DNA of 64,000 nt from contig DATKEC010000117.1 in NCBI GenBank assembly GCA_035544575.1, positions 11,865 through 75,864 on the forward strand. Direction: 5' to 3'. Position numbers and translations under genes: made by a program. Of this stretch, positions 3,183-57,777 are shown piece after piece (the stretch's first letter is position 1; every line of letters starts with the position of its first letter). The notes under the pieces were generated by a model that did no database searches, was not told the origin of the DNA, and saw only the letters and a program-made list of their open reading frames with translations. The stretch is from Acidimicrobiia bacterium (GTDB taxonomy: Bacteria > Actinomycetota > Acidimicrobiia > Spongiisociales > ZC4RG35).

Positions 3183-3284
3183 GCAACCGATTCTAGGCAG
3201 ACTGAGACCGTTCCTGGAAACGTTTTTCGGCTACTCTCACCAACTAGTTTCCAATCCGTCTTCGACGGCCATGGGAGGACTGGC

Positions 3285-4409
3285 ATGAAGATCAAAACGG
3301 TCACACCGATCTCGGTGGCCTACCCGGAGCCAAACGACAACGGAGCCACCCGCTACCTGACGCTGTGCCGGATCGAGGCAGAGGACGGAACCGTGGGGTG
3401 GGGCGAGTCTGTGACGATGTGGCCGGCCGTGTGCAAGGCAGTCGAGGCGCTGATCGACGGCTACGCGGAACTCATCATCGGCGCGGATCCGACCGACAAT
3501 GTCGCGCTGTGGCATGCGATGCGCGACCACGGTTGGTGGTACGGCCATGGAGGCGGATTCGTCTCATTCGCCATAAGCGCCATCGACATCGCACTCTGGG
3601 ATCTGCGGGGCCGAATCACCGGCCAGTCATTGATCTCGATGCTCGGTGGAGCCCGCCAGGAGCGCCTCCCGGTGGCGGCGAGCACTCACGCCTCACGCGG
3701 CGATCTGCACGAGGAGGTGGGTCTCTACGCGAGCTACATCGAGGCTGGATTCCACGGCGTGAAGGTCGGCTTCGGGAAACGAGGCGACGCCAAACTCGGA
3801 TACGAGATCGACCGTGACCTGGAGTTCGCTCGGCTGTACCGGGCAGCGGTCGGCCCGGAGCCATGGCTGATGATCGATCGAGGTCAATCGTTGCATTGGG
3901 ATCTCGACCACGCCGTACGCCTCACCCAGGGCATGGAGGAGTACGGCCTGCGTTGGATGGAGGAGCCCTTCGAACCGCATGAGACGTCGAACTACAGGAC
4001 CTACCGTGAACGCGTCTCGACCATGATCGGCGCGGGCGAGCGAGAGTGGGATGAGCGCGGGTATCGGCGGGTCATCGATTCGGGTCTGGTCGACGTGATT
4101 GGATTCGACCCGGGCAGGGCCCAAGGCGTCACCGGCGGGGTCAACGTGATACGACTCGTCGAGTCGGCAGGACTCTGGTTCAACGCCCACGCCTGGAGCA
4201 GCGCCATCGTCACGAGCGCCAGCGTCGCCCTCTCGGCCTCGACCAATCGGGCACTGCTGCTCGAACTGAAAGCCGAACAAAATCCGATGCAGCACGATCT
4301 CGTCACCAACCCTCTGTCGCACACCGATGGTTGGATCTCGCCATCCGGCGGCCGAGGACTGGGAATCGAGATCGAAGAGGCGATCGTCGAGAAGTACAGA
4401 TTCCGGTGA
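3285..4409 (+). CDS. Enolase superfamily (MR/MLE family) dehydratase/racemase, paralog 1.
   Basis: 374 aa with N-terminus MKIKTVTPISVAYPEPNDNGATRYLTLCRIEAEDGTVGWGES. Clearly paralogous to the gene at 42960..44093. GGAGGA RBS upstream. Confidence 0.8.
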   Translation: MKIKTVTPISVAYPEPNDNGATRYLTLCRIEAEDGTVGWGESVTMWPAVCKAVEALIDGYAELIIGADPTDNVALWHAMRDHGWWYGHGGGFVSFAISAIDIALWDLRGRITGQSLISMLGGARQERLPVAASTHASRGDLHEEVGLYASYIEAGFHGVKVGFGKRGDAKLGYEIDRDLEFARLYRAAVGPEPWLMIDRGQSLHWDLDHAVRLTQGMEEYGLRWMEEPFEPHETSNYRTYRERVSTMIGAGEREWDERGYRRVIDSGLVDVIGFDPGRAQGVTGGVNVIRLVESAGLWFNAHAWSSAIVTSASVALSASTNRALLLELKAEQNPMQHDLVTNPLSHTDGWISPSGGRGLGIEIEEAIVEKYRFR

Positions 4410-4433
4410 GCGCGCCCGTCTCGACGGGGCAGG

Positions 4434-5300
4434 TCACCGCTTGCGCCGATACGGGTTGAGAAGGTCGCTCAGGGTGTCACCGAGCAACGTGAAGATCAGG
4501 ACGGTCACGAATATCGCACTCCCTGCGCCGACCGCAATCCACGGGTTCATCGACAGCAGCGTCTTCCCGGTGCCAAGCATGCGTCCCCATGATGGGGTGG
4601 GCGGCTGAACGCCGAGCCCGAGGAAGCTGAGCGCTGCTTCCGTGAGGACGGCGGTGGCGAACGTCAGCGTGAACTGCACCGTCGTGATCGAGACCAGATT
4701 GGGCAGGAGCGAGCGGGCCATGATGTAAAGATGGCTACCCCCGAGCGCCCGCGCCGCGAGGACGAACTCACTGCTCCGCAAGGACAGGGTCACCCCGCGG
4801 ACGAGGCGGGCGAAGCGGGGAATCTGAACGACCCCGATCGCGATGATCGTGTTCCTCAGGTTCGGCCCGAGTACCGCGACCGTGGCCATCGCCAGGATGA
4901 TGGGGGGGAACGCGAGCAGACCGTCGGTGACACGCATCGTCACGGTATCGACCAGCTTGCCGAAGTAGCCGCTCGCGATCCCCAGCGGAACACCAAACGC
5001 CACCGCAATCGCCGTCGCTCCGAACCCGACGTAGAGCGAGATGCGCGATCCGAAGATCACACGCGAGAAGACATCACGGCCAATCTCGTCGGTACCCAGC
5101 CAAAATTCCGAAGACGGCAGGTCGACAGCGAACCCGACCACGTCGGTGGCACCGTAAGGGGCGAGAGCGTCGGCGAAGACGGCCAGGGCGAGCAGCCCGA
5201 GCGCTGCGACCATCGTGAACAGGTGGAGCTTGTTGCCTACAAGTGCACGCCAGCGCCGGGCGCGGGCGGGCGTTGCGGCGGCGGAGCTACTGAGGGTCAT
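4434..5300 (-). CDS. Dpp/Opp-type ABC transporter permease (DppC-like).
   Basis: The real start is the internal ATG at 5300, which forms an ATGA overlap with the upstream permease stop. The protein has multiple TM-like hydrophobic stretches and the binding-protein-dependent permease signature region. Confidence 0.8.
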   Translation of the reverse strand: MTLSSSAAATPARARRWRALVGNKLHLFTMVAALGLLALAVFADALAPYGATDVVGFAVDLPSSEFWLGTDEIGRDVFSRVIFGSRISLYVGFGATAIAVAFGVPLGIASGYFGKLVDTVTMRVTDGLLAFPPIILAMATVAVLGPNLRNTIIAIGVVQIPRFARLVRGVTLSLRSSEFVLAARALGGSHLYIMARSLLPNLVSITTVQFTLTFATAVLTEAALSFLGLGVQPPTPSWGRMLGTGKTLLSMNPWIAVGAGSAIFVTVLIFTLLGDTLSDLLNPYRRKR

Positions 5301-6244
5301 GAGCGCGCGATCCTTGGATCGAGCCATGAGTAGGCGAGGTCGACGACCAGGTTCACGATGACGAAGGCTGCGGCCGAGACCAGCACCGCGACCTGGACCA
5401 CGTCGAATGCCCGCGTGAGTATCGACTGGATCATCAACCAACCGAGTCCGGGCCAGGTGAAGATCTGTTCGATCACGACCATGCCCCCCACCATGAGGCC
5501 GAAACTCACGCCGACTTCGGTGATTAGGGGAATCGAGGCGTTGCGGAGTGCATGGCGGTAGTTGATCCGGCGCGACTCCAGCCCCTTGGCCCGGGCGGTC
5601 CTGACGTAGTCGGCGTGTAAGACCTCGAGCATGCCCGCCCGCATGAAGCGGGTCAGCCTGGCCGCAGTGACGGTCCCGATCGTGATCACGGGCAGGACGA
5701 GCTGGCTCAGGTGGCGAAACGGATCCTGGGAGAACGGAACGTAACCTCCCGGCGGGAGGATCGGTAGCAGCTCCGCAAAAACGAGCAGCAGCGCGATGCC
5801 CAACACATAGGTCGGCATACTGAAACCGAGGGTGGCCAGCACGCGCGCAACGTGGTCCATCCAGGTGCCTTCACGTATCGCAGAGACCATGCCCAACGGA
5901 ACGGCGATGACCACAGCGAGGACGATCGAGATCACCGCCAGCTCCAGCGTTCGTCCGAGCGCCGGAAATACGAGACCCGCCACTTCGGCTCCACCGTGCG
6001 TGATGGACGTACCCAGGTCCCCGCGCACCAGGTTGCCCATCCAGCGGAAGTATTGCTCGACGAGCGGATCATCCAGGCCAAGCTCCGCCCGCAACGCGGC
6101 GTACGCCTCAGGGGGCGCGTCGAACCCCAACGTCATCGCCGCCGGATCTCCGGGCACGATTCGGAAGATGACGAACACTGCTGTCGCGACTATCCACATC
6201 ACCAGGAGGCCCTGGAGCACCCGGCGGAGTAGGTAGCGGCGCAT
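5297..6244 (-). CDS. Dpp/Opp-type ABC transporter permease (DppB-like).
   Basis: 315 aa starting MRRYLLRRVLQGLLVMWIVATAVFVIFRIVPGDP, a typical DppB N-terminus. Confidence 0.85.
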   Translation of the reverse strand: MRRYLLRRVLQGLLVMWIVATAVFVIFRIVPGDPAAMTLGFDAPPEAYAALRAELGLDDPLVEQYFRWMGNLVRGDLGTSITHGGAEVAGLVFPALGRTLELAVISIVLAVVIAVPLGMVSAIREGTWMDHVARVLATLGFSMPTYVLGIALLLVFAELLPILPPGGYVPFSQDPFRHLSQLVLPVITIGTVTAARLTRFMRAGMLEVLHADYVRTARAKGLESRRINYRHALRNASIPLITEVGVSFGLMVGGMVVIEQIFTWPGLGWLMIQSILTRAFDVVQVAVLVSAAAFVIVNLVVDLAYSWLDPRIARS

Positions 6245-8315: not shown

Positions 8316-8361
8316 CGGCTCACAGTCTCCGGCCGTGCTGCGGGTTGGTCATCCGTAGAGT

Positions 8362-10066: not shown

Positions 10067-10087
10067 GGAATCGTGGGAAACGATTCC
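10067..10087. promoter_or_regulatory. Candidate operator: GGAATCG-n7-CGATTCC inverted repeat.
   Basis: The sequence ggaatcgtgggaaacgattcc lies in the 316-bp divergent region between the SBP gene and the CoA-transferase gene. Confidence 0.35.
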
Positions 10088-10186
10088 AACCGCGCCGACA
10101 ATAGCGACGCTCCGAGCTGGCCGTCAACACATCGGAGCGAGACACCGCAGACGGACGTCATCCAGCGCCCGTCTGCGCCACTCACT

Positions 10187-10202
10187 CCGGAATCGATTCT
10201 GG
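10187..10202. promoter_or_regulatory. Candidate operator: near-perfect 16-bp palindrome CCGGAATCGATTCTGG.
   Basis: Read directly from the sequence. Same motif family as the other boxes in this window. Confidence 0.4.
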
Positions 10203-10228: not shown

Positions 10229-10270
10229 CTACGACCTCATCCTAGAAACGTTTCTAGGATGAGGTCGTAG
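10229..10270. promoter_or_regulatory. Perfect 42-bp palindrome (21 + 21) centred on AAACGTTT, ending 24 nt upstream of the CoA-transferase start codon. Probable operator.
   Basis: The sequence ctacgacctcatcctagaaac gtttctaggatgaggtcgtag was verified base by base with no mismatches. It creates two spurious mirror ORFs that both end in YDLILETFLG. Confidence 0.6.
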
Positions 10271-10293: not shown

Positions 10294-11556
10294 ATGAACC
10301 CCCCCACCGAGGACACTCGACCCCCTACGAGGCCAGCGCCCCTCTCCGACGTGCGTGTACTTGCAGTCGAACAGTACGGTGCGGGCCCTTTCGGCACTCT
10401 GCAACTCGCCGACCTCGGCGCCGAAGTCATCAAAATCGAGGATCCTCGTTCCGGCGGAGACGTCAGCCGCTACGTCCCGCCATTCCAGGACGGGGAGCAC
10501 AGTCTGTTCTTCGAGTCGTTCAACCGAAACAAGCGGAGCTTGGGCCTCGACATCTCCAACCCCGCCGGGCGCCGGGTGTTCGAAGATCTCGTCGCCGTCT
10601 CCGACGTCGTGTACTCCAACCTTCGCGGCGACGTCCCCGCCCGGCTCCGGCTTCGCTACGCCGACCTGGCGGACGTCAACCCGGCGATCGTCTGCGTCTC
10701 ATTGTCCGGATTCGGCATGACCGGACCCCGCGTGGCCGAACCAGGCTACGACCCGATTCTTCAGGCGCTGGCTGGGTGGATGAGTGTCACGGGCGACCCG
10801 GCCGGGCCGCCCACCAAATCGGGACTGTCGCTAGTTGATTATGCGGGCGGATACGTCGCCGCGATTTCACTACTCGCCGCGCTTCATGCCGCGCGGCGTG
10901 ACGGCATCGGCATGGACTGCGACGTCAGCCTCTACGACACCGCCATCAGCCTTCTCACCTACCCGGCGATCTGGTACCTCAACGGCGGACTCATACCCGA
11001 GCGCAAGGCGAACTCGGCTCATCCCTCCCTCATCCCTTTTCAGGCATTCGAGGCGGCAGACGGATGGCTCACCGTCGCTTGCGCCAAAGAGAAGTTCTGG
11101 CAGCGCCTCGTCGTCGTGCTCGGGCTACCGGAACTCACCACCGATCCCCGGTTTTCCGACTTCGACGCTCGGAGGGAACACGCAGCCAGCCTCGGACCGA
11201 TCCTCGAGGGAGCCTTTCGTACCGACACGGTCGCGGGGTGGGTTGATCGTCTGGCAGACGCCGGAGTACCCACCGCCCCTGTCCAGTCCCTCCCCGAGGC
11301 ACTGACGGACGCCCATACTCTCGCCCGCGACCTCATCGTCGAGACCGACCATCCACTGTTCGGGCCGATCCGCCAGGTCGCCAGTTCGGTCCGGGCAGGT
11401 AACTCGATCACGGATCACCGACCCGGACCCGCGCGCAACGAGGCGTCGGACTACGCCCTGTCCACGATCCTCGGCTATGACCAGCGGACCATCGCCGCGC
11501 TCACCGCGGAAGGAGCGTTCGGCGAGGTTTCCGCTGAGTCCAAAGACTGCCGATGA
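10294..11556 (+). CDS. Family III CoA-transferase (CaiB/BaiF family).
   Basis: 420 aa with N-terminus LSDVRVLAVEQYGAGPFGTLQLADLGAEVIKIE. GGATGGAG RBS upstream. Confidence 0.85.
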   Translation: MNPPTEDTRPPTRPAPLSDVRVLAVEQYGAGPFGTLQLADLGAEVIKIEDPRSGGDVSRYVPPFQDGEHSLFFESFNRNKRSLGLDISNPAGRRVFEDLVAVSDVVYSNLRGDVPARLRLRYADLADVNPAIVCVSLSGFGMTGPRVAEPGYDPILQALAGWMSVTGDPAGPPTKSGLSLVDYAGGYVAAISLLAALHAARRDGIGMDCDVSLYDTAISLLTYPAIWYLNGGLIPERKANSAHPSLIPFQAFEAADGWLTVACAKEKFWQRLVVVLGLPELTTDPRFSDFDARREHAASLGPILEGAFRTDTVAGWVDRLADAGVPTAPVQSLPEALTDAHTLARDLIVETDHPLFGPIRQVASSVRAGNSITDHRPGPARNEASDYALSTILGYDQRTIAALTAEGAFGEVSAESKDCR

Positions 11557-11590
11557 ACCGCCCACGATTACAGGCCCGGTCTGATGTCGG

Positions 11591-11636
11591 CCGTTACGAT
11601 TCCGGGCCACTCCGGAAACGTTGAAGCGTTTTCGGC
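11591..11636. promoter_or_regulatory. Two candidate operator boxes upstream of the LacI-family regulator gene (possible autoregulation).
   Basis: The boxes are ccgttacgattccggg and ccggaaacg ttgaag cgttttcgg. The second is an interrupted palindrome. Confidence 0.4.
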
Positions 11637-11684
11637 CATCCGAGCCCAGGGAGTTGCGTGCACAGCGGAGAAAACAACCCCACG

Positions 11685-12683
11685 ATGAAGGAAGTGGCGT
11701 CTCGCGCTGGCGTCGCGCTCTCCTCCGTCTCCCGAGTTCTCAACCACCATCCCGACGTGAGCGAACGCATGCGCCGGCGAGTTCTGAACGCGGTCGACGA
11801 CCTCGGCTATGAGCCGAACCTTGTCGCGTCGAGCCTGCGCCGCGGGTCGACCCATACGATCGGCTTCGTCGTCTCCGACATCTCCAACCCGCTGTTCGCA
11901 GACTTCACGAAGGGAGCGGGTGACCGGCTCCATGCCGCCGGCTATTCGATGGTGCTCACCAACGCCGGAAGCGACCCGGAACAAGATGAAGCGATGATCC
12001 GCCTCCTCCGCTGGAGGAGGGTGGACGGCCTGATCACGTCGCTCGCAGACGAGTCCCGCCCAGATACGATCGCCGAACTCCAGCGGATAGAAGTCCCCAT
12101 CGTTCTACTCGACCGGTTCGTCGACGAACTTCCGAATGCCTCTGTCATCAGTGCCGAACACGCCTCGGGGATGACAGAGGCGACGGCGCAGTTGCTCGCC
12201 CTCGGCCACCGCCGCATCGCCTTGATCTCCGGATCCCCCCGCATCCGGCCTCCGAACGAGCGGGTGGAGGGCTTCCGACGGGCATTCGACCGCTTCCGTA
12301 TCCCGTACCCATCCGACCTCGTGCGTCTGGGGAGCTTCTCGCCGGAGTTCGGGACACGTTCCACCACTGAATTGCTCGCCTTGCCCGAGCCGCCAACGGC
12401 GATCATCTCTGGTGGCAACTTGTTGCTGACGGGCGTGTTGCGAGCGTTGCGGAGCGCCGCGCTGCATCCGGGTCGGGACATCGCGATAATCTCCTGCGAC
12501 GACGTCGCGCTCGCGGAACTGCACACCCCGCCTATCACTGTGATCGCCCGCGACACGGTCCGAATGGGCGAGTTGGCAGCGGAGTTGATGCTGGAGCGCC
12601 TCGCATCCGAGGATGCTCCGCCCCGCGTCGAACGCGTGCCCACCACCGTCGTGATGCGCGAGTCGACTTTCCCGCTGAGGTAG
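11685..12683 (+). CDS. LacI-family transcriptional regulator. The ORF-track start at GTG 11658 is also possible.
   Basis: N-terminal HTH MKEVASRAGVALSSVSRVLNHHPDVSERMRRRVLNAVDDLGYEPNLVASSLR followed by a periplasmic-binding-fold sugar-binding domain. Confidence 0.85.
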   Translation: MKEVASRAGVALSSVSRVLNHHPDVSERMRRRVLNAVDDLGYEPNLVASSLRRGSTHTIGFVVSDISNPLFADFTKGAGDRLHAAGYSMVLTNAGSDPEQDEAMIRLLRWRRVDGLITSLADESRPDTIAELQRIEVPIVLLDRFVDELPNASVISAEHASGMTEATAQLLALGHRRIALISGSPRIRPPNERVEGFRRAFDRFRIPYPSDLVRLGSFSPEFGTRSTTELLALPEPPTAIISGGNLLLTGVLRALRSAALHPGRDIAIISCDDVALAELHTPPITVIARDTVRMGELAAELMLERLASEDAPPRVERVPTTVVMRESTFPLR

Positions 12684-12693
12684 TCGGCGTCGC

Positions 12694-12933
12694 CTAGGTC
12701 TCTATGACGCAGAGACCGGCCCCGGTGGCTACCTCGTCGCCCTCTGACACCAGCGTCTCGACCAACGTCCCCCCGATCGGCGTGGGCACCTCCATCTCGA
12801 CCTTGTCGGTCTCGACCCGCACGATGGGATCACCGGCCGCCACCGTTCCACCGATTGGAACCAACCAATCCAGCAGCAGGACCTCGTCGACGGTGTCGGC
12901 GACCTTGGGCAGCTTCACGATACTCCGTGGCAC
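12694..12933 (-). CDS. Free-standing lipoyl (biotin/lipoyl attachment) domain protein, 79 aa.
   Basis: Contains the VETDKVEMEV lipoyl-lysine motif. The protein is a single roughly 80-aa hybrid-barrel domain with no E2 catalytic domain. Confidence 0.7.
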   Translation of the reverse strand: MPRSIVKLPKVADTVDEVLLLDWLVPIGGTVAAGDPIVRVETDKVEMEVPTPIGGTLVETLVSEGDEVATGAGLCVIET

Positions 12934-12945
12934 AGCGGCGACCTC

Positions 12946-13929
12946 CTAGGCGTACACATTGCGGAACATCGCGGCGGGCTCGGGGAAGGGTGACTCCTTC
13001 ACCTGAGCTACCAACTCCTCGAGTGCTCCGCCGACCGCTTTCTCGAGTTGCTCTGCGGATTCCGCAGTGAGCACTCCCTCGTCGATCAGTCTGGCGCGGA
13101 ACGTGTTGATCGGATCCCGCTCGTACCACCTCTCGAACTCACCTGGGACCCGATAGGGAGCGGTGTCGGCCCGGGAATGGCCGGCATAGCGGTAGGTCTT
13201 TGCTTCGAGCAGGCTCGGCCCGTCGCCGGCACGCGCCCGGGCGAGGGCTGTGTTCATCGCCTGTTCGACCGCGTCGGGGTCCTGGCCATTCACGATCACA
13301 CCCGGGATGCCGTACGACACCGCTCGGTCGGCGAGATCCTCGATGGGTGTCGTGACATCGATCCGGCTGTATTCGCCGTACTGGTTGTTCTCGCAGACGA
13401 ACACCACAGGGAGCTTCCAGATGGCGGCCAGGTTGATTCCCTCGTGGAATGCACCGATGTTCGAGGCGCCGTCACCGAAGACCGCAATCGCGGCATCGTC
13501 GGTTCCGTTCACCTGAGCAGTCAGCGCGGCGCCCGCGGCCACGGGAATGCCTGCGCCGATGATCGCGAACGTCGGAAGAAGACCCACCTCGGGCTCGCAC
13601 AGATGCATGGAGCCGCCCACACCTCCCACCGATCCACCCACACGACCCATGATCTCGGCGAGGACGCTCTCTCCGGTCACACCCAATGCAAGCGCCACAC
13701 CGTGACCTCGATAGGTACAGGTCACCTGATCGGTGGGCCGAGCGGCCGCGGCGATGCCCACGGCAACCGCCTCCTGACCCTGGCAGGTATGAGTGGTACC
13801 GTGGACGATCCCCTCGGCGAACAGATCCTTGACACGATCCTCGAACGAGCGGATCTCCACCATCCGGCGGAACCGCTCTACGCGATCGGTCTGCAATGCC
13901 CTCCGGCGCTCGAGCGGAACTGAACTCAT
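12946..13929 (-). CDS. TPP-dependent 2-oxoacid/acetoin dehydrogenase E1 component, alpha subunit.
   Basis: TPP-binding motif GDGASNIGAFHEGINLAAIWKLPVVFVCENNQY. The start at 13929 forms an ATGA overlap with the E1-beta stop. Confidence 0.85.
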   Translation of the reverse strand: MSSVPLERRRALQTDRVERFRRMVEIRSFEDRVKDLFAEGIVHGTTHTCQGQEAVAVGIAAAARPTDQVTCTYRGHGVALALGVTGESVLAEIMGRVGGSVGGVGGSMHLCEPEVGLLPTFAIIGAGIPVAAGAALTAQVNGTDDAAIAVFGDGASNIGAFHEGINLAAIWKLPVVFVCENNQYGEYSRIDVTTPIEDLADRAVSYGIPGVIVNGQDPDAVEQAMNTALARARAGDGPSLLEAKTYRYAGHSRADTAPYRVPGEFERWYERDPINTFRARLIDEGVLTAESAEQLEKAVGGALEELVAQVKESPFPEPAAMFRNVYA

Positions 13930-14939
13930 CTCGACTCCTTCTTCTTCCACCACGGAGACGGGAGAGAACCCGTCGCCAGTAGCTCGTCGACCTGGCTCAC
14001 CACGTACTCGGCGGAGGGAAGAAAACGGGCCTCGAGTTCCTTGCCGAACGGGACAGGGACATCTGGACAGGTGATGCGGGTGATCGGCGCCGTGAGATGC
14101 CGGAAGCCCTCACCGGCCAACCGGGCAGCGACCTCGACCCCCCATCCGCCGGTGAAAGGAGACTCTTCCACGAGTACGAGACGGCCTGTGCGCTCCACCG
14201 AGAACAGGACCGCCTCGACGTCCCAGGGCAGGAGAGATCGCAGGTCGATGACGTCTGCCGACCACGACGCCATCGCCGTAGCTTCGAGGACGGTGCGAAC
14301 CATCGCCCCGAGCGTGACGATCGTGACATCGTCTCCTGACTCCGCGAGCTGGGCAGAACCGAGCTGCACGAGTTGGTCATCGCCGGTCTCGACGTCGCCC
14401 CTGGTGGCGTAGAGCACCCGGGGCTCGAGGACGACGACGGGATTGGGATCGCGGATCGCCGACCGGATCAGCCCATAGGCGTTCTGGGGGCTGGAGGCCA
14501 CGGCCAGCTTGAGGCCGGGCGTGGCGAACATCCACGTTTCGAGCGTCTGTGAGTGTTGTGCCCCAAAGCCGAGTCCTGCACCGACCGACGCTCGCACAAC
14601 CATCGGCACGGTCACCTTCCCGCCCGAGAGGTAATGGAACTTGGCCGCCTCGGTCGACACCTGATCGAGGGCGACTCCGAGAAACTCCACGAACATGATC
14701 TCGACCACGGGGCGCAGGCCGGTGCAGGCGGCGCCGACCGCCGCCCCGACGAATCCCATCTCGGAGATCGGAGTGTCGCGTACGCGCAGCGGCCCGAACT
14801 CGTCGAGCAGACCATCCGAGGTCTTGAATGGTCCTCCCGCTGCTGCGACGTCCTCGCCGAGCACGACGACGGACGCGTCGGCCCGCATCTCGTCGGCGAT
14901 ACCCGCCGCAATCGCCTGGTTCATTCGCATCTTGGGCAT
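13926..14939 (-). CDS. 2-oxoacid/acetoin dehydrogenase E1 component, beta subunit.
   Basis: Real start MPKMRMNQAIAAGIADEMRADASVVVLGEDV at 14939. The ORF-track N-terminal extension is Arg/Ser-rich junk. The protein has a transketolase-like fold. Confidence 0.85.
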   Translation of the reverse strand: MPKMRMNQAIAAGIADEMRADASVVVLGEDVAAAGGPFKTSDGLLDEFGPLRVRDTPISEMGFVGAAVGAACTGLRPVVEIMFVEFLGVALDQVSTEAAKFHYLSGGKVTVPMVVRASVGAGLGFGAQHSQTLETWMFATPGLKLAVASSPQNAYGLIRSAIRDPNPVVVLEPRVLYATRGDVETGDDQLVQLGSAQLAESGDDVTIVTLGAMVRTVLEATAMASWSADVIDLRSLLPWDVEAVLFSVERTGRLVLVEESPFTGGWGVEVAARLAGEGFRHLTAPITRITCPDVPVPFGKELEARFLPSAEYVVSQVDELLATGSLPSPWWKKKESR

Positions 14940-14975
14940 GGTTCTCCTCTCGGTGCGGCGACTATAGCGACGGGT

Positions 14976-14991
14976 CCGGAAACGTATCCAT
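14976..14991. promoter_or_regulatory. Candidate operator box tccggaaacgtatcca upstream of the E1-beta/alpha/lipoyl operon.
   Basis: Same GGAAACG-type core as the other boxes. Located in the 103-bp gap 14940-15042. Confidence 0.3.
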
Positions 14992-15042
14992 CCGCCCAAG
15001 AGGTGGGAAACGGAAGACCAAGCCAGCTCCGGGCGGTACCTT

Positions 15043-16341: not shown

Positions 16342-16458
16342 CTGCTCCTCCTCCGGGGAACCACGCCTCTCTCGCCCCACAGTCGCTCCGGGCGACGTGG
16401 CAGCGTACGTGCTGGCCGATGCGCTTCGGTCTCGACGAGCGCCGACCACCAACGTGGA

Positions 16459-17817: not shown

Positions 17818-17912
17818 AGGACGGACGCCAGTGTCCGTAGCTGCCGAACGTCTGAGGATCTTTTTCCCGAGATCCCGATACAGGGCCCTTCGCGTCGTCT
17901 ACGATCCGAATT

Positions 17913-17928
17913 CGGGAATCGTTACCGG
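17913..17928. promoter_or_regulatory. Candidate operator box cgggaatcgttaccgg in the divergent region between the aminotransferase gene and SBP2.
   Basis: Fits the same motif family. Confidence 0.3.
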
Positions 17929-18011
17929 TGCCGATGGCCGGTCGGAGGTGGCGTTCCCGCGATCCGGCGCACCGCGCCGGGAGACAGGCAAACGATCCAG
18001 AGGAGATAACC

Positions 18012-26439: not shown

Positions 26440-26460
26440 CCGGATCGGATACGATTCCGG
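26440..26460. promoter_or_regulatory. Candidate operator ccggatcggatacgattccgg in the divergent region.
   Basis: It shares the GGATACGATTCC core with the direct repeats at 36489-36518. Confidence 0.35.
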
Positions 26461-34884: not shown

Positions 34885-34900
34885 CCTAGAATCGATTCCA
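34885..34900. promoter_or_regulatory. Candidate operator cctagaatcgattcca (palindromic GAATCGATTC core) in the divergent region.
   Basis: Read directly from the sequence. It sits between the start of the 2-HADH operon and the cupin gene. Confidence 0.4.
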
Positions 34901-34951
34901 ATATCTCGCCACATGGTTGAATCGCACCACCGAACAACCGAGGAGCAGCTC

Positions 34952-36473: not shown

Positions 36474-36488
36474 TCGCCGATCGTACCT

Positions 36489-36518
36489 GGATACGATTCT
36501 TGGATACGATTCCAATCG
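36489..36518. promoter_or_regulatory. Direct repeat of GGATACGATTC (2 copies) followed by CAATCG. Candidate operator in the divergent region.
   Basis: The sequence ggatacgattc tt ggatacgattc caatcg was read directly. Confidence 0.4.
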
Positions 36519-37575: not shown

Positions 37576-37576
37576 T

Positions 37577-39027: not shown

Positions 39028-39063
39028 TTGCGATCTTCCCCATTGCTACTGGGATTCCGGGTC

Positions 39064-39077
39064 TGGGAACGTTACCA
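39064..39077. promoter_or_regulatory. Candidate operator tgggaacgttacca (near-palindrome) upstream of the SDR/SDR/class IV aminotransferase operon.
   Basis: Its reverse complement tggtaacgttccca matches the box at 46836-46849. Confidence 0.45.
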
Positions 39078-39116
39078 CTGCTAGGGTCAACGGAGCCCGA
39101 ACGCGGGAGGAAATCG

Positions 39117-39871: not shown

Positions 39872-40600
39872 ATGCCGCTCGAAGGCACGGTGGCAATCGT
39901 GACCGGTGCGGGCTCCGGCATCGGGCGGGCGGTGGCACGCAACTTGGCAGACGCCGGCGCCGCAGTCGCCCTTGCGGCGCGGTCACTGGATCGGCTGGAG
40001 ACCGCCGCGGAAGACATCCGCACCCGCGGGGGCCAGGCGATTGCTGTTCGATGCGACGTCACCTCCGAGTCCCAGGTGCTGGCCATGTTCGACGAAGTCG
40101 AGGCAGAAATGGGACCGGTCGATGTTCTCGTGAACAACGCTGCCACGCTCTCGTCGGCCGCCATCGAAGACACCACGCTGGCGGATTGGCAGCACGTGCT
40201 CGACGTCAACCTGACCGGGGCATTTCTGTGCATGCGGGAGGCGATTCGTCGGATGAAGCCGCGCAGCCGGGGTCGGATTCTCAACATCGGCAGCATCTCG
40301 GCCTCAGTGCCGCGCCCGATGACTGCTTCGTACGCGGCATCGAAGGCGGGTCTGGTCGGGCTCAGCCGGACGGCCGCGATCGAGGCGCGACGCCACGGAA
40401 TCGCGGTCGGGTGCCTGCATCCTGGCAATGTTCGGACGGAGACACGACAAGATATGAGCGATCCGATCAACCGGGAGAACATGATGTCGGTCGACGAGGT
40501 GGCTGAACTCGCCAGAGCCATGCTGTTGGTATCTCAGACCACGGTCGTGTGGGAACTGACGGCGCTGCCGATCGAGCAGGCGTTCCTCGGCCGTGGATGA
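39872..40600 (+). CDS. SDR-family oxidoreductase. A TTG start at 39857 is also possible.
   Basis: MPLEGTVAIVTGAGSGIGRAVA motif. Confidence 0.85.
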   Translation: MPLEGTVAIVTGAGSGIGRAVARNLADAGAAVALAARSLDRLETAAEDIRTRGGQAIAVRCDVTSESQVLAMFDEVEAEMGPVDVLVNNAATLSSAAIEDTTLADWQHVLDVNLTGAFLCMREAIRRMKPRSRGRILNIGSISASVPRPMTASYAASKAGLVGLSRTAAIEARRHGIAVGCLHPGNVRTETRQDMSDPINRENMMSVDEVAELARAMLLVSQTTVVWELTALPIEQAFLGRG

Positions 40601-40638
40601 GTACCGTTTCCAAGGAGTCGAGAGGAGACCCCGACCTG

Positions 40639-42810: not shown

Positions 42811-42905
42811 GTAAGTCGTTTGTGTCCTCCGCGATCAGTGCCACCACACCTCCTTCGTTTACAAACTGGGCATCGCCGGCCCGGACGCCTACCCGACCCT
42901 CGGGC

Positions 42906-42917
42906 TGGAAACGTTAC
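42906..42917. promoter_or_regulatory. Candidate operator box ggaaacgttact in the divergent region between the DAO gene and enolase-2.
   Basis: Same GGAAACGTT core as the other boxes. Confidence 0.3.
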
Positions 42918-42959
42918 TATCCTCGGTTCAGAACGAGCTTTCCGGTCAGGAGTCCGAGC

Positions 42960-46780: not shown

Positions 46781-46835
46781 CGTTCGTCGTCCTCCTCGTC
46801 CGTGGAGGGCAGGGTAGCGACCGAAGAACGACCTC

Positions 46836-46849
46836 TGGTAACGTTGCCA
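46836..46849. promoter_or_regulatory. Candidate operator tggtaacgttgcca (14-bp palindrome with 1 mismatch) in the divergent PTE/MaoC region.
   Basis: Read directly from the sequence. Confidence 0.45.
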
Positions 46850-46852
46850 GGG

Positions 46853-47732
46853 ATGACCGGCATCGCCGACGAGGGGATGGATCCACGCCAGCACGAGAGG
46901 TCCGGAACGCGGGCGCTCGACGACTGGACGAAAACCATCGTCGAGGCCCAGGATGTCGTCGCCCCTGATCGAATCGAAAGGCTCGCCCTCGCACTTGGCG
47001 TCGAGCCGCCCGTTCACGAGGAGCCGCTGAGCCCGTTGTGGCACTGGCTGCTGTTCCTGCCAGCCACTGCCCGGACCGAGACCGGTGACGACGGGCATCC
47101 GCGACGCGGTGGGTTCCTCCCGCCACTCCCCCACCGCCGGAGGATGTATGCCGGGGGGCGGCTCGAGTTCCACGCGCCTATCCCCATTGGGGCGAACGTC
47201 ACCCGCCGTGGCGAAATCGTCGACATCACAGAGAAGGCCGGCCGAAGCGGTGACATCGTGCTCGTGTCCGTTCGCTACGAGATCACCTGTGACGGCCGAC
47301 CGGCGATCACAGAACACCAGGAACTGGTCTATACCGACTCTCCGCCGAAACCGGTGGCGGCTGAAGCCGACAAATTGCTCCCCCCGGCCCGATGGGTCGA
47401 CACGGTGGTCACCGACGAGGTCCTGCTCTTCCGCTTTTCCGCACTCACACACAACTCTCACCGGATCCACTACGAACCGCAACTATGCGACCGGGACTGA
47501 GGGTTACCCCGATCTGGTCGTCCACGGTCCACTCACCGCCATCCTGTTGGCCGACCTCGTTCGCCGCAACGACCCCATGACGATCGTGGCATTCAACTTC
47601 TCGTCGCGTGCTCCCCTCTATGTCGGTGAGACGATCCTTCTCCGCGCCGACGGCAACGAAGACAGCGTCACCGCCAGCGCGAATCGGCCGGAAGGCACTG
47701 TGTCGATGGCGGCCGAAATGAGGCTGGCGTGA
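46853..47732 (+). pseudogene. MaoC-like (R)-specific enoyl-CoA hydratase/dehydratase with an apparent +/-1 frameshift near 47474-47486.
   Basis: The N-terminal part (…LSPLWHWLLF…SHRIHYEP) is in frame 2 and ends at 47500. The C-terminal hotdog part (NYATGTEGYPDLVVHGPLTAIL…) is in frame 0. The two parts are contiguous in sequence, consistent with a single-nucleotide indel or sequencing error. Confidence 0.6.
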
Positions 47733-48620: not shown

Positions 48621-49826
48621 TCAACCCGAGTCGACCACGAGGCTGGGCACCGTCCGCTCGAACCAGTTGACCACGGGAACCTGCCGCTCCCGCAACCTCG
48701 GTCCGTTCAAGCTCAACAGGAACCGTTCGGTGGCAACCACCGCCTCGACCCGGGCAAGTTGATACCCCATGCAAAAGTGGCTTCCGAGGCCGAAAGCGAG
48801 ATGCCCGGCCACCCCGCCCGCGTGATACCCGGGCTTGCGTTCCGTCCCCATGAGGAGATCCTGGCGGTCCGGGTCGAAGCGCTCGGGTTCGGCAAAAATC
48901 GAGTCGTCATTGTTCGCCGAACCAAGACACACGAGCACGTTGGTGTCCGTCGGCAGTTCTCGCCCGTACCACTCGACAGGGCTGTTGGTTCGTCGGTCCT
49001 CGTAGACGATCGGGCCGTCCCTCCGCAGGGACTCCGAGAATCCGCGCTGGATGCGATCCGGATCTTCCCGGCACCGTTCCAGTTCCTCTGGATGATCCAA
49101 CAATGCCCACCAGAAGTTACGCAGGGCCATGTCCGTCGTTGGACCACCGGCCACGAGCAAGAAGCTGACGAACGAGAAGATCTCCTCATCGGTCAGTCGC
49201 TCGCCGTCGGCTTCACCGTGAACGATTCGAGAGATCAGGTCGTCGGTCGGAGCGACCCGCCGGGCGGCGACGAGCGGCGCGAGATGCCCGGCGAGGCGTC
49301 GATGCGCTCCCCGGCCGCGAGCTCGCAGCTCGGGATCGTCTTCGAGTGCCTCCAGGATCGTGTTCCCCACTTCGAAGACGAGATCGTTGTCGGCCGGGGC
49401 GAATCCGAGCAGCGCGGAGATGACTGTCAACGGAAGGCGGTTCGTCATCACGTCGACCAGGTCGCCTCCTGAAATGTACTCGGCTCCCAACAGATCGACC
49501 GAGGACTCGATGAACGGGCGGTAGGCCTCGAGACTCCGGCCAACGAAGGCTGGTGCGACGATGGTGCGTTCGCGGATGTGGCGTGGTCCGTCCAACTCTG
49601 CCAGCGTGCGTCCGAAGACCGGTCGGAATCGCTCCTGATACGTGCGAGTCGAATAGGTCCCGTGGTCACCCAGCACCGTCACCACGTCCTCGAAGCGCGA
49701 CAGTATCCATCGGTCGGCCGCTTCGTCGTAGAAGAGGGGGTGTTCTTCACGGAGACGACGCCAGGTGGGGAAGGGATTCCGAAGATACTCGTCACTCCGC
49801 AGGGCGTCACCGACTGAGACGGTCAC
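48621..49826 (-). CDS. Cytochrome P450.
   Basis: Heme-binding motif FGLGSHFCMGYQLA. A probable GTG start at 49826 forms a GTGA overlap with the upstream RhaM-like gene. ATG 49853 is the alternative. Confidence 0.85.
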   Translation of the reverse strand: MTVSVGDALRSDEYLRNPFPTWRRLREEHPLFYDEAADRWILSRFEDVVTVLGDHGTYSTRTYQERFRPVFGRTLAELDGPRHIRERTIVAPAFVGRSLEAYRPFIESSVDLLGAEYISGGDLVDVMTNRLPLTVISALLGFAPADNDLVFEVGNTILEALEDDPELRARGRGAHRRLAGHLAPLVAARRVAPTDDLISRIVHGEADGERLTDEEIFSFVSFLLVAGGPTTDMALRNFWWALLDHPEELERCREDPDRIQRGFSESLRRDGPIVYEDRRTNSPVEWYGRELPTDTNVLVCLGSANNDDSIFAEPERFDPDRQDLLMGTERKPGYHAGGVAGHLAFGLGSHFCMGYQLARVEAVVATERFLLSLNGPRLRERQVPVVNWFERTVPSLVVDSG

Positions 49827-50161
49827 GGCTCCACCTCGTCCAGGTGCCAGCATTCGGCATACTCGAAGAGGTTTCCCGATTCGTCGGTCATCCGGGCGAT
49901 GTACGGCTCCATCACGCGGTTCCATCGATCGGTGACCCCCGTATATCTGTCGGCCATTCTCCGACGCACCGTGGCGACGTCCGGGTCACACACGCAGGTG
50001 CAGATCACGTGCGGCCCTCTCCGAAAGAGGGTGTAGTCGCGATATCCCGCGTCGAGGATCGCCGCCGCGAGCTCCGGCCAGATCTCCCGGTGCATCCGGT
50101 CGTACTCCTCCTCGGTCCCGGGGACCAAATCGAAGGTGAAACAGAGCCGCTCCACTGTCAA
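49823..50161 (-). CDS. L-rhamnose mutarotase (RhaM/YiiL) family protein.
   Basis: 112 aa. The segment EEYDRMHREIWPELAAAILDAGYRDYTLF parallels the RhaM segment [30 protein letters not shown]. Confidence 0.65.
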   Translation of the reverse strand: MTVERLCFTFDLVPGTEEEYDRMHREIWPELAAAILDAGYRDYTLFRRGPHVICTCVCDPDVATVRRRMADRYTGVTDRWNRVMEPYIARMTDESGNLFEYAECWHLDEVEP

Positions 50162-56109: not shown

Positions 56110-57713
56110 TCGACGTCACCGAAGCCATTGGCGATGACTCCGCTCAGGTCCTCGGGCAGGACAAGCGACACCGGCGCACCGAAACCGAAGTAGGCGATCA
56201 CGTCTTCGACGATGGTACGTTCCGCTTCGGCCAGCAGACCGTCGATCTCGGGCGCATCGAACGGCGTGGCGTTGATCTCTCGGTAGAGCTCCGCCACGTG
56301 GGGGACGACGTCGCCCTCCGTATACGCGCTGAGGATCGACGACGGGTTCACCAGGTAGTCGAAGAAGTTCTTGCTCGGGAACGGCAGGTTGCCCGCGTTG
56401 AACGTGATTCCCTCCCAGGTCCCGTTGGTGTACGTCCTTTCGAGCCAGTCACCCGCTTCGGCGACCTCGACCTCGCACGTGATCCCCGCCTCCTGGAATC
56501 CCTGCTGCAGCACCTGGGCGGCTGAGATGCCGTCGTCATAGCCGGCGATGCAGAGGATGGGAACCGAAATGTCTGTCCTGCCCAACTCCTCGAGCAGTTC
56601 TCGTGTGCGCGCAGGGTTGTACTCCACGTCGGCGTCGATCCCGGAGTTCTGCGGGTACAGCTTGAACGGGTTCCAGCTGTGGGTTCCCTTCCCGCGGAAC
56701 GAGGCGTTGTTGAGCGCCTCGAGATCGAAACTGTGGCGCAGTGCGGCACGCACGGCCGGATCATCGAGGGGCTCCTTGCCCATCTGAATGATCCACCAAT
56801 AGGCGTAGGTGGCGGCCGTCTCGAGCGTTTTGCCCGGCACGTCGGAGACCGCATCCACGTTCCCCGGCGCGACGTCGTACAGCGCATCGACTTGTCCGCT
56901 GCGCAGACCCGTGCTGGCCGTCGACGGATCCGCGAAGAATGCGAAGCTCAACGTCTCGATTGGTGGTTTGCCGTCCCAGTAGTCGGGGTTGGCGACGGCC
57001 TCGAGCCCGGTACCGCTTGTGAACCTGCCCAGTTTGAATGGTCCGGTGCCCAACACCTCGTTGGCGAAATTGACCCGACCGAACGACTCGTTCGGCACGA
57101 TGAGGACCGGCTGGGGGTTGACGAGGAACTCGACACGCTCGGTCGTGTTCACCTCCACCGTGTACTCATCGACGGCGACCGCCGACACCCACTGGGAAGG
57201 CGTCATGATCGGACGTCCCGCCGTGGAAGCCATCAGGGTCTCGTCGGCGCGGGCTGCGATCGAATACGCCACGTCCTGTGCGGTCAGCGGAGACCCGTCG
57301 TGGAACGTCACACCCTCACGGATCTTCAGGATGGTCTTGGTCGGATCGGACGTGTCCCACTCGGTCGCGATGCAGGGCTGCAAAGTCCCGCTGATGTCCT
57401 TCTTGATGAGCGGGTCGTAAAACACGAAGCCCATCATCTGGGACCACACGTAGCCCTGGATGGCGAACGGTGTGAGCCCGTCGATCACCGAGTTCATCCC
57501 CACAGACAGAGAAGTCTTCGCAGTGCCAGACCCGGAGGTGGTCGAAGTCGTCGTCTCGGCCGACCCTCCGGCAGCGGTGGTCGTCGTCGTCGTCGCTTCG
57601 CCGGTGTCGCCGTCGACTCCGCAGCTCGCTAGGACCAGGCCGCCCATCGACGCGGCCGACAGTCGCAGGAATCCCCTCCGACTCAGGTCGCCCCTCGTAT
57701 CACTCGATTCCAT
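56085..57713 (-). CDS. ABC substrate-binding protein, family 5, with a Tat signal and lipobox.
   Basis: Real start at 57713 with a GGAGG RBS. The signal MESSDTRGDLSRRGFLRLSAASMGGLVLASCG contains a twin-arginine motif SRRGFLRL and a LASC lipobox. Confidence 0.8.
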   Translation of the reverse strand: MESSDTRGDLSRRGFLRLSAASMGGLVLASCGVDGDTGEATTTTTTAAGGSAETTTSTTSGSGTAKTSLSVGMNSVIDGLTPFAIQGYVWSQMMGFVFYDPLIKKDISGTLQPCIATEWDTSDPTKTILKIREGVTFHDGSPLTAQDVAYSIAARADETLMASTAGRPIMTPSQWVSAVAVDEYTVEVNTTERVEFLVNPQPVLIVPNESFGRVNFANEVLGTGPFKLGRFTSGTGLEAVANPDYWDGKPPIETLSFAFFADPSTASTGLRSGQVDALYDVAPGNVDAVSDVPGKTLETAATYAYWWIIQMGKEPLDDPAVRAALRHSFDLEALNNASFRGKGTHSWNPFKLYPQNSGIDADVEYNPARTRELLEELGRTDISVPILCIAGYDDGISAAQVLQQGFQEAGITCEVEVAEAGDWLERTYTNGTWEGITFNAGNLPFPSKNFFDYLVNPSSILSAYTEGDVVPHVAELYREINATPFDAPEIDGLLAEAERTIVEDVIAYFGFGAPVSLVLPEDLSGVIANGFGDVEWHRAAFA

Positions 57714-57750
57714 GTGCCGTAACCTCCAATGCTCCGCTCCGCGACATGAC

Positions 57751-57777
57751 AACGATTCTAGGAACGTTTTCGGAACC
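57751..57777. promoter_or_regulatory. Candidate operator aacgattctaggaacgttttcggaacc upstream of operon 3.
   Basis: It contains both the CGATTCTAGG and GGAACGTTTTCGG elements seen at 3188-3230. Confidence 0.4.

Follow-up and report, generated by a model that had tools for sequence, protein, structure and literature searches.

Recurring CG-centred palindromes as probable operators of a LacI-family repressor along a catabolic island of about 58 kb in Acidimicrobiia

The locus and its regulator gene

The window, that is the whole stretch of 64,000 nucleotides analysed here, carries an island with three ABC systems of the SBP_bac_5 (peptide/opine) type, a DMFase-like amidase, phosphotriesterase-family lactonases and a GGT, together with aminotransferases of classes III and IV, a DAO-type oxidase and a P450. 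One gene in it encodes a regulator.

11682..12683, + strand: LacI-family regulator gene, 333 aa from ATG 11682, with an alternative GTG start at 11658

The product contains the LacI helix-turn-helix domain PF00356 (residues 9-54 of the GTG-start form), PF00532 (Peripla_BP_1) and PF13377 (Peripla_BP_3). No other transcription factor gene was found by Pfam among the ~60 genes of the window, leaving this gene as the sole regulator there. The candidate named at 11685 in an earlier note on this DNA is essentially its ATG. Structural comparison yields a full-length alignment to the RbsR, CcpA, PurR and LacI structures, of which RbsR, CcpA and PurR are the nearest, with residues 1-328 covered. The DNA-reading helix AGVALSSVSRVLN and the hinge NLVASSLR are invariant across 27 orthologues. 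The hinge sequence, NLVASSLRRG in full, contains Leu52, which by our own alignment we take to be the equivalent of PurR Leu54. None of the NCBIfam equivalog cut-offs was passed, all 18 matching models scoring below theirs; the best score was 189.6 bits for RbsR against a cut-off of 531. Orthology to the named regulators (RbsR, PurR, CcpA, Cra, CytR, GalR and others) was ruled out on these scores.

The palindromic boxes and their positions

The recurring CG-centred palindromic boxes described in the earlier note are real: the described sequences are present in 14 of 14 coordinate ranges, and the motif is enriched over shuffles. The pattern GGAAWCGWTTCC with at most one mismatch has 7 matches in the window against 0.63 expected from dinucleotide shuffles (0 of 100 shuffles reached 7), and all 7 are non-coding. 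With at most two mismatches, 19 matches were observed against 9.1 expected; 13 of the 19 are non-coding, and the six coding ones look like chance matches. A 16-bp matrix with the consensus CTGGAAWCGWTTCCAG, trained on the window's own sites (a dependence that the pattern search, the word counts and independent loci make less serious), gives 15 matches of at least 12 bits. All 15 are non-coding under the gene starts chosen here, within a non-coding share of the window of 2812 bases (4.4%), so that the claimed near-exclusive intergenic or divergent placement holds given these starts. Six boxes sit within the longest possible ORFs and are non-coding only under the chosen starts. We set these starts by the limits of Pfam domains, by Shine-Dalgarno sequences and by the lengths of orthologues (E1 beta, 337 aa; binding protein, 531 aa; FMN dehydrogenase, 352 aa). 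Euler-shuffled intergenic DNA gave 0.08 matrix matches on average and never more than 2. The same motif was recovered by location-blind word statistics on the intergenic DNA of the window, where CGATTC, AACGTT, AAACGTT and ACGATTCC took the top ranks.

The motif is an even palindrome of 16 bp, with the central CG in 100% of the window sites and in 96% of 146 non-redundant sites from the orthologue loci. Conservation ends at 16 bp, as the columns beyond position 8 on both sides are near 25% per base in the 146 sites. The boxes, listed without strand, are as follows.

3214..3229: box CTGGAAACGTTTTTCG, 19.3 bits, in the divergent region between orf113/DMFase-like/enolase-0 leftwards and enolase-1 rightwards
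10074..10089: box TGGGAAACGATTCCAA, 21.3 bits, ~104 bp 5' of the ABC system 1 binding-protein gene
10187..10202: box CCGGAATCGATTCTGG, 19.8 bits, ~99 bp 5' of the CoA-transferase gene
10242..10257: box CTAGAAACGTTTCTAG, 25.6 bits, 44 bp 5' of the CoA-transferase-lacI operon
11590..11605: weak box GCCGTTACGATTCCGG, 5.7 bits, between the CoA-transferase gene and lacI
14976..14991: box CCGGAAACGTATCCAT, 19.8 bits, 45 bp 5' of E1 beta (ATG 14939)
17913..17928: box CGGGAATCGTTACCGG, 18.0 bits, divergent region between aminotransferase-III/amidohydrolase genes and ABC system 2 with Amidohydro_3
26445..26460: box TCGGATACGATTCCGG, 18.2 bits, divergent region between a 400-aa gene and a D-Ser-dehydratase-like/epimerase/racemase operon
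34886..34901: box CTAGAATCGATTCCAA, 23.7 bits, divergent region between a 2-HADH/SDR/PTE/2-HADH/GGT operon and a cupin gene
36487..36515: overlapping pair CTGGATACGATTCTTG (18.9 bits) and TTGGATACGATTCCAA (22.1 bits), offset 13 bp
39063..39078: box CTGGGAACGTTACCAC, 15.5 bits, divergent region of two SDR operons
40598..40613: weak box TGAGTACCGTTTCCAA, 11.8 bits, between an SDR gene and the class-IV aminotransferase gene
42905..42920: box CTGGAAACGTTACTAT, 21.7 bits, divergent region between the DAO-type oxidase gene and an enolase-2/SDR/TIM-barrel operon
46835..46850: box CTGGTAACGTTGCCAG, 19.4 bits, divergent region between PTE-2 and MaoC-like/Amidohydro_2 genes
57746..57773: overlapping pair ATGACAACGATTCTAG (14.4 bits) and CTAGGAACGTTTTCGG (15.2 bits), offset 12 bp

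Box centres lie 34-104 bp 5' of the chosen start codons. Box 10074 has an extra half-site, GGAATCG, beside it at 10067, and box 10242 forms the centre of a perfect 42-bp palindrome (10229-10270) that folds strongly. Box 14976 heads the operon E1 beta/E1 alpha/lipoyl-protein. The pair at 36487 stands just 5' of an FMN-dependent dehydrogenase gene (ATG 36473) and 170-185 bp 5' of an EamA gene. The rightward SDR operon at box 39063 extends to the class-IV aminotransferase gene; box 40598, which lies before that gene, was absent from the earlier list. The MaoC-like gene extends to 47732 and is coupled to Amidohydro_2. The pair at 57746 is 40-52 bp 5' of the ABC system 3 binding-protein gene (ATG 57713), whose operon continues through TIM-barrel, GFO, rhaM (49823-50161) and P450 genes. 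After two gene-map corrections, every transcription unit between 1 and 57.8 kb has a box, and the matrix scan of the window found none across the 6 kb to the right of 57.8 kb.

The claim of boxes 5' of lacI itself (11591-11636) stands in part. The first, box 11590, is conserved in position, while all are weak in the window, the two further half-boxes up to 11636 scoring -0.9 and 2.4 bits. The weakness of the boxes directly 5' of lacI (at most 5.7 bits) was counted against the proposed control. More probably, lacI and the CoA-transferase gene share one transcript that starts at the promoter with boxes 10187 and 10242. A tetrameric, loop-forming repressor like LacI proper was also considered and rejected. 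The C-terminal heptad tetramerisation helix of E. coli LacI comprises residues about 340-360, and the 333-aa protein aligns to LacI residues 5-330 only. Since the alignment stops short of this helix, boxes 10074, 10187 and 10242 are unlikely to be a looping set.

Conservation of the boxes in relatives

Comparison with syntenic metagenomic loci revealed the boxes as invariant islands in diverged intergenic DNA, at the same positions in every claimed region. In the left part, the counterpart of box 3214 is kept in locus L055. The segment GGAAACGATTCCAAC at box 10074 shows no change among the window, L045 and L048, and GAAACGTTTCTAG at box 10242 is invariant in L045, L048 and L055. Box 10187 is found in L055, its segment being missing from L045 and L048. 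At box 11590 the position of ACGATTCC(A/G)G is kept in L045 and L048, with an orthologue of 14.9 bits in L048. The stretch GGAAACGTATCCA at box 14976 does not vary among the window, L045, L048 and L051, and all 16 bp of box 17913 are unchanged in L045 and L048, where the flanks differ. Orthologues of box 26445 are located at 18555 in L135, 17652 in L136 and 17641 in L137.

The right part gives a similar picture. The sequence TGGAATCGATTCTAGGCTGC at box 34886 is invariant in L135 and L136, the box being present in L137 too, and GGAATCGTATCCA at the pair 36487 is invariant in L135, L136 and L137, with the tandem pair retained in L137. Box 39063 has orthologues at L135 7548, L136 7554 and L137 5030, box 42905 at L135 4467, L136 386 and L137 1198, and box 46835 at L135 597 and L138 20762. 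The weak box 40598 is also conserved in position (L135 6701, 19.1 bits; L137 3488, 13.1 bits). A 25-bp core of the pair 57746 is identical in L138 with differing flanks, and the pair is degenerate in L139. In L138, 8.8 kb of housekeeping genes flanking the island have no box.

The association with the regulator extends much further. Eighty metagenomic loci with orthologues of the regulator (41-95% identity, 42-74% GC) contain 132 boxes scoring 15 bits or more, where 4.3 were expected, and at loci with independent gene calls the matches are intergenic in 25 of 27 cases in one set and 20 of 21 in another. A box of at least 12 bits lies within 250 bp 5' of the regulator orthologue in 32 of 70 loci. 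The enolase-superfamily gene orthologous to enolase-0, usually beside the regulator gene, has a box 5' of it in 41 of 43 loci, and blind word counts on the regions 5' of this neighbouring gene recovered the half-sites again. Of the 44 long loci with an orthologue, 6 lack any box of at least 15 bits, and in L052 no box reaches even 11 bits. In Firmicutes, distant homologues (about 30% identity) with the near-identical helix TVSRVLNHHPDVSE have a box of the same class beside their own genes. The motif is thus real, strongly enriched, confined to non-coding DNA, conserved in position and found together with orthologues of the regulator.

Proposed mechanism and alternative explanations

LacI-family operators follow the rule of an even palindrome, 16-22 bp long and centred on CG; a central CG is reported for 1173 of 1303 regulators of the family (Ravcheev et al. 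2014, PMC4052901). The 16-bp palindrome with its invariant central CG bears out the fit to the generic LacI-family operator core proposed earlier. We propose, with a probability of about 0.8 judged from sequence, that the boxes are the operators of the LacI-family repressor whose gene lies at 11682-12683; that this protein binds them, that it acts by repression and what kind of effector it answers to are all inferred. The helix-turn-helix domains of the dimer would read both GGAAW half-sites, and the hinge leucines would insert at the central CG step. The bound dimer would then block RNA polymerase, given that the boxes, 34-104 bp 5' of start codons, extend over probable -35/-10 or start regions. 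A small-molecule effector in the periplasmic-binding-protein-like domain would free the repressor from DNA. By this mechanism one repressor would co-ordinate all boxed transcription units of the island. Its probable regulon comprises ~20 transcription units (~54 genes), served by 12 promoter regions within the interval 1-57.8 kb. Every operon for which co-regulation had been predicted has a box, as have several more, and the co-occurrence of regulator and box at the 80 orthologue loci supports the idea of a single LacI-type regulon. More speculatively, the recurrent box pairs with a 12-bp offset could represent two dimers on one 28-bp composite operator, a mode not known to have been described for the LacI family.

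The boxes might instead be genuine LacI-type operators bound mainly by a different LacI-family paralogue, perhaps a more global one encoded outside the window, with the local regulator having another target or only sharing the sites. The same box class beside the distant Firmicutes homologues indicates that this orthologous group is not alone in its specificity, so a paralogue elsewhere in the genome could share or own the sites; the weakness of the boxes just 5' of lacI and a view confined to 64 kb of the genome point in the same direction. However, the box tracks this orthologous group through very different gene neighbourhoods and base compositions, often stands directly 5' of the orthologue or of the neighbouring enolase-superfamily gene, and no second regulator gene is found in the window. 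We consider such a paralogue unlikely. That a regulator of another family (TetR, IclR, GntR or similar) binds the boxes, their likeness to LacI operators being coincidental, is highly improbable. Short CG-centred palindromes also occur with proteins outside the LacI family, but the window has no gene of any other regulator family, the boxes co-occur with LacI orthologues at 80 independent loci, and the LacI family has as its signature a conserved hinge Leu combined with an even palindrome of 16 bp whose central CG does not vary.

That the boxes are non-regulatory, being REP- or MITE-like dispersed repeats, elements of the core promoter or simply a result of the AT-rich composition between genes, is strongly disfavoured and has hardly any probability left. 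The copy at 10242 within its strongly folding perfect palindrome would suit a repeat, and a TACGAT hexamer resembling a -10 element in some boxes would suit a promoter. The dispersed repeat was rejected, as the conserved unit is no longer than 16 bp, near-random beyond that, and persists as invariant islands while the flanks diverge. The variable distance to start codons is a poor fit to a fixed promoter element, and composition-preserving shuffles of the intergenic DNA gave 0.08 matches against the 15 observed.

Comparison with known LacI-family systems

Operators of the repressor proposed here can be compared with those of E. coli RbsR and PurR, its nearest characterised relatives by sequence, which share its domain architecture and length. 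RbsR and PurR operators are 16-bp palindromes with the core AAACGTTT, whose central CG is contacted by the hinge leucine; PurR requires a corepressor. The relation to RbsR is distant (190 bits against the cut-off of 531), and the regulator is therefore not an RbsR orthologue. The outer half-site bases are GG/CC here (TGGAAACGTTTCCA), whereas they are CG or GC in RbsR and PurR operators, and neither ribose nor purine genes are among the targets.

In having one LacI-type protein, many operators and tens of targets, the system resembles Cra/FruR, CcpA, PurR and PckR/GapR/GluR of Alphaproteobacteria (PMC4052901), to none of which the regulator is orthologous. Those regulons are scattered round the chromosome and serve central carbon or purine metabolism, whereas the known targets here all lie in one contiguous island of ~58 kb and are peripheral catabolic genes. 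Local LacI-family sugar repressors of the RegPrecise type are similar in the even palindrome with central CG and in sites 30-140 bp 5' of start codons, and perhaps also in a regulator gene beside its targets and in frequent autoregulation, which the boxes 5' of orthologues suggest here. The core also resembles an oxidative sugar-acid pathway, with an acid-sugar dehydratase-like protein, an L-fucono-lactonase-like protein, SDRs and rhaM. In contrast, the island adds peptide/opine-type ABC systems, an amidase, lactonases, GGT, aminotransferases, an oxidase and a P450, and its ~54 genes in ~20 transcription units compare with at most 20 genes in 93% of reconstructed LacI regulons (PMC4052901).

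Core and additions of the proposed regulon

In the ancestral core, lacI usually has an enolase-superfamily dehydratase gene as its neighbour, and in L049 and L051 the two adjoin and are divergently oriented. A lactonase-like amidohydrolase, SDRs, a GFO/TIM pair and E1 alpha/beta plus a lipoyl protein complete this core. As conserved in relatives, it looks like a sugar or sugar-acid pathway, to which this lineage has added the three peptide-type ABC systems and the enzymes of amide, lactone and amino-acid type. Large LacI-family regulons arise from local ones through gradual expansion (PMC4052901), a model which fits this core-plus-additions pattern. Tentatively, a repressor that ancestrally served a small set of sugar-acid operons could have come to control an island-scale regulon of ~54 genes in a soil or sediment lineage of Acidimicrobiia, with a substrate of the amide, peptide or amino-sugar-acid type instead of a plain carbohydrate, and possibly with two-dimer binding on the 28-bp composite operator. 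If so, the added genes would include the three peptide/opine-type importers, the DMFase-like amidase, the phosphotriesterase-family lactonases and GGT, and also D-amino-acid-type enzymes, the P450 and the E1 alpha/beta pair with a free lipoyl carrier. The kind of switch would be ordinary, and the gene set under its control (~54) unusually large.

Gene content of the window and its regulator

The window has a G+C content of 65%, and Pfam scans of about 60 ORFs revealed a dense catabolic gene block with exactly one regulator gene, which belongs to the LacI family (lacI, 11682-12683, + strand, 333 aa). Its start is most likely ATG 11682, giving a protein beginning MKEVASRAGVALSSVSRVLN. According to Pfam, the block encodes three SBP_bac_5-type ABC systems, three enolase-superfamily proteins, one DMFase-like amidase, a family-III CoA-transferase, E1 alpha and E1 beta with a 79-aa lipoyl protein, several amidohydrolases, aminotransferases of classes III and IV, two phosphotriesterase-family (PTE) proteins, GGT, 2-hydroxyacid dehydrogenases, an FMN-dependent dehydrogenase, many SDRs, a DAO-type oxidase, GFO/TIM pairs and a P450. 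A plasmid near-identity search with the window's first 25 kb returned short ABC-transporter matches only; therefore, no annotated relative was found. Exact matching of the CoA-transferase protein hit a single contig of 1.6 kb. The following genes are referred to below.

607-3182, - strand: DMFase-like large subunit of 764 aa, preceded by a 113-aa ORF
12694-14939, - strand: E1 alpha and E1 beta, then a free-standing 79-aa lipoyl-domain protein
46877-47732: MaoC/Htd2-like hydratase in two reading frames, with a break near 47475 relative to the 277-aa protein of the metagenomic locus L138
49823-50161, - strand: rhaM-family mutarotase, flanked by genes for a GFO-type oxidoreductase and a P450; 82% identity to its L138 counterpart
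57825-58775, - strand: 2,4-diaminopentanoate-dehydrogenase-like gene

The 113-aa ORF, which has no Pfam match, is possibly the DMFase small subunit. In place of the split genes, the related locus L139 (1424-4870) carries one 1148-aa protein that fuses esterase, DMF_alpha and DMFA2_C domains. No E2 catalytic domain was found anywhere in the window, and the E1 alpha/E1 beta/lipoyl trio also adjoins LacI orthologues elsewhere. The tail of the MaoC/Htd2-like gene reaches 47732 and overlaps the start of an Amidohydro_2 gene; its frame break is due either to an error in the sequence or to a frameshift that made it a pseudogene. The rhaM gene was overlooked by a simple ORF map, and the P450 within this sugar-type operon is unusual.

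A palindromic box in non-coding DNA

The earlier note had reported CG-centred palindromic boxes in about twelve promoter regions, and the claimed sequences are present in all 14 coordinate ranges. With at most one mismatch, GGAAWCGWTTCC occurs 7 times against 0.63 expected, always in non-coding DNA (7/7); with at most two, it occurs 19 times against 9.1 expected (13/19 non-coding). A symmetrised 16-bp matrix with the consensus CTGGAAACGTTTCCAG gave 15 matches of at least 12 bits, all 15 within the 2812 non-coding bases that make up 4.4% of the window. Euler shuffles restricted to the intergenic DNA gave a mean of 0.08 such matches. When no prior motif was supplied, the top over-represented intergenic words were CGATTC, AACGTT, AAACGTT and ACGATTCC. 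Six of the boxes fall within the longest possible ORFs, and their non-coding status depends on the chosen gene starts, which are backed by the lengths of orthologues (337 aa for E1 beta, 531 aa for the binding protein and 352-364 aa for the FMN dehydrogenase), Shine-Dalgarno sequences and Pfam domain limits.

Syntenic metagenomic loci were obtained by exact-protein look-ups of homologues of the regulator (L045, L048, L049, L051 and L053), the FMN dehydrogenase (L135-L137) and the ABC system 3 binding protein (L138 and L139). The boxes occupy the same intergenic positions across these loci, and their alignments revealed the boxes as invariant blocks amid diverged DNA. By independent gene calls, 25/27 and 20/21 box matches are intergenic. 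No box was found in the 8.8 kb of housekeeping genes adjoining the island in L138. Only the window and L055, its 95% relative, have box 10187 and long palindrome arms at box 10242.

10229-10270: perfect 42-bp palindrome CTACGACCTCATCCTAGAAACGTTTCTAGGATGAGGTCGTAG, centred on box 10242 and ending 24 nt before the CoA-transferase ATG

As RNA, this palindrome has a folding energy of -42.8 kcal/mol (z-score -7.4). Its arms are absent from L045 and L048, and at this site L055 has arms that differ and are imperfect, plus a second, partial copy of the box. The palindrome may be a 5'-UTR hairpin, or merely the outcome of recent palindromisation.

Association of the box with orthologues of the regulator

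When metagenomes were scanned with an orthologue alignment, 80 LacI loci were recovered (41-95% identity, 42-74% G+C); together they contain 132 boxes scoring 15 bits or more, with 4.3 expected. Of 70 loci, 32 have a box scoring 12 bits or more in the 250 bp upstream of the regulator gene. Neither the helix AGVALSSVSRVLN nor the hinge NLxASSLR with its leucine varies among orthologues, down to 52% identity. Among the neighbours, the best conserved is a gene orthologous to the partial enolase-superfamily gene at window 1-537; in L049 and L051 it is adjacent and divergent to the regulator gene. A box is present in the 400 bp upstream of this orthologue in 41 of 43 loci, and blind word counts over 37 of its non-redundant upstream regions yielded the half-sites once more, along with a TTGACA -35 element.

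Boxes of 15 bits or more are missing from 6 of 44 long orthologue loci, and L052, whose orthologue is 57% identical, has none reaching 11 bits. In L052, a Wadjet-like cassette (11169-19390; DUF2397, DUF2398, SbcC-like, DUF3323/DUF2399) adjoins the LacI orthologue, AT-rich inserted DNA lies upstream, and the locus is broken by defence and toxin-antitoxin-like insertions. The boxes of this locus are lost; only TTGGAAACCATTCGGC is left, upstream of Amidohydro_2.

When one genome per species was scanned with the single LacI protein, no close relative emerged; the homologues found are about 30% identical and mostly from Firmicutes. Firmicutes homologues of this kind with the helix TVSRVLNHHPDVSE carry CTGGAAACGTTTCCAG beside their own genes. 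In L002-L043, from Oscillospiraceae and Erysipelotrichaceae, the box lies about 50-70 bp upstream of these genes (for example, L033 9929-9956 and L036 9949-9976). Since they carry the same box, these homologues are not a clean control; they were dropped as the negative control, and shuffles and coding DNA were used instead.

Three other readings of the boxes were rejected, namely a REP/MITE element, a core promoter element and an artefact of composition. The main rival is that the boxes belong to a paralogue of the same specificity, and it has to be weighed against the enrichment of boxes around orthologues of this one gene. The observation of the earlier note holds and its single-regulon interpretation is supported, and we consider the boxes to be predicted operators of this LacI-family protein, with a probability of roughly 80%.

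Coverage of the island

Every divergent promoter region from 3183 to 46899 has a strong box, and strong boxes also lie upstream of the E1 operon (14976) and ABC system 3 (57746/57758). Two apparent box-free promoter gaps were rejected because they are coding: 47501-47728 is the frameshifted MaoC-like tail and 49926-50157 is rhaM. Therefore, with transcription units assigned by strand and spacing, all of about 20 units from 1 to 57.8 kb, comprising about 54 genes, appear to lie behind a box. The boxes claimed directly upstream of lacI are present as sequences, but they are weak (5.7, -0.9 and 2.4 bits). No box was found right of 57773 in the window. In the window, where its upstream neighbour is a hydrolase gene, the 2,4-diaminopentanoate-dehydrogenase-like gene lacks a box; in L138 (8819), with a LysR gene upstream, it has a 19.5-bit box of its own. 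Therefore, the right edge of the regulon differs between relatives.

Box geometry and proposed mechanism

LacI-family operators are even palindromes of 16-22 nt, with a central CG for 1173 of 1303 regulators; of the sites, more than 75% fall between -140 and -30 and under 1% in coding DNA, and autoregulation is found in 72% of the regulators (Ravcheev et al. 2014, PMC4052901). The box centres in the window lie 34-104 bp upstream of start codons, and the box geometry is the LacI-family norm. Several boxes overlap likely promoter elements, and the following hexamers lie close to boxes.

TATAGT: 9-11 nt from box 14976, on the E1 beta strand
TACGAT: immediately before box 17913
TACGAT: 7 nt before ATG 36473 (36473-36486, - strand), with boxes 36487-36515 just upstream

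The last of these, before the FMN-dehydrogenase ATG, is kept as TACGCT in L135. No Shine-Dalgarno sequence is present at the FMN-dehydrogenase, aminotransferase-III (17817) and DAO (42810) starts. The arrangement at the FMN-dehydrogenase start suggests that its mRNA is leaderless.

From the box geometry and the overlap with promoter elements, we infer repression by promoter occlusion, in which the repressor bound to the box would occlude the promoter and an effector would relieve the repression. The regulator stops short of the LacI tetramerisation helix, and is thus most likely a non-looping dimer, judging from its sequence. Looping between boxes 10074, 10187 and 10242 was rejected, as the protein has no tetramerisation tail. 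Some boxes form overlapping pairs shifted by exactly 12 bp, which gives 28-bp composites (CTGGAAACGTTTCCGGTATCGTTTCCGG is one example). Overlapping pairs are found at window 57746-57773 and 36487-36515, in L083, L084, L089 and L095, and in L006-L041. The 12-bp offset was counted in 17 non-redundant Firmicutes and 5 actinobacterial cases, plus one 13-bp variant in the window.

Regulon content and comparison with known systems

Near the LacI orthologues, enolase-superfamily genes were found in 43 of 85 loci, E1 alpha in 26, E1 beta in 25, SDR in 23, GFO-type oxidoreductase in 22 and Amidohydro_2 in 21, and rhaM is present in several. The nearest NCBIfam models of the conserved neighbours, at scores below the cut-offs, are acid-sugar dehydratases and L-fucono-1,5-lactonase. 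The ancestral regulon core would thus be an oxidative sugar or sugar-acid pathway. Peptide/opine-type ABC systems, GGT, PTE-family genes, FMN dehydrogenase, DAO-type oxidase and aminotransferases are common to the closest relatives only, which indicates that the regulon is enlarged in this lineage.

The nearest relatives of the regulator are RbsR, PurR and CcpA, and structure and NCBIfam comparison revealed no orthology to any named regulator. A literal literature search with the box sequence returned nothing relevant; a rhamnose-regulon paper (PMC3870299) deals with other LacI regulators and has no matching sequence in its text. The helix-turn-helix and effector domains, the hinge leucine, the even palindrome with a central CG and the position of the boxes in promoter regions all agree with a LacI repressor/operator system, and the predicted regulon is a new, uncharacterised system of this type with an ordinary, textbook mechanism. 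Its scale is unusual, with about 54 genes here, whereas 93% of reconstructed LacI regulons have at most 20 (PMC4052901). All of these genes sit in a single contiguous island, and many of them do not resemble carbohydrate-metabolism genes.

Should a single repressor and a single effector turn on the entire island, its roughly 54 poorly annotated catabolic genes would form one unit open to testing, which would take in the DMFase-like amidase, two PTE-family and three enolase-superfamily enzymes, and the E1/lipoyl set without an E2 core. The ligand of the regulator would then point to the pathway substrate, and the regulator-box pair could serve to mark out equivalent regulons in many uncultured Actinomycetota from soil, freshwater and marine samples. 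The island would be a clear example of a local LacI regulon grown to a size usual only for global regulators.
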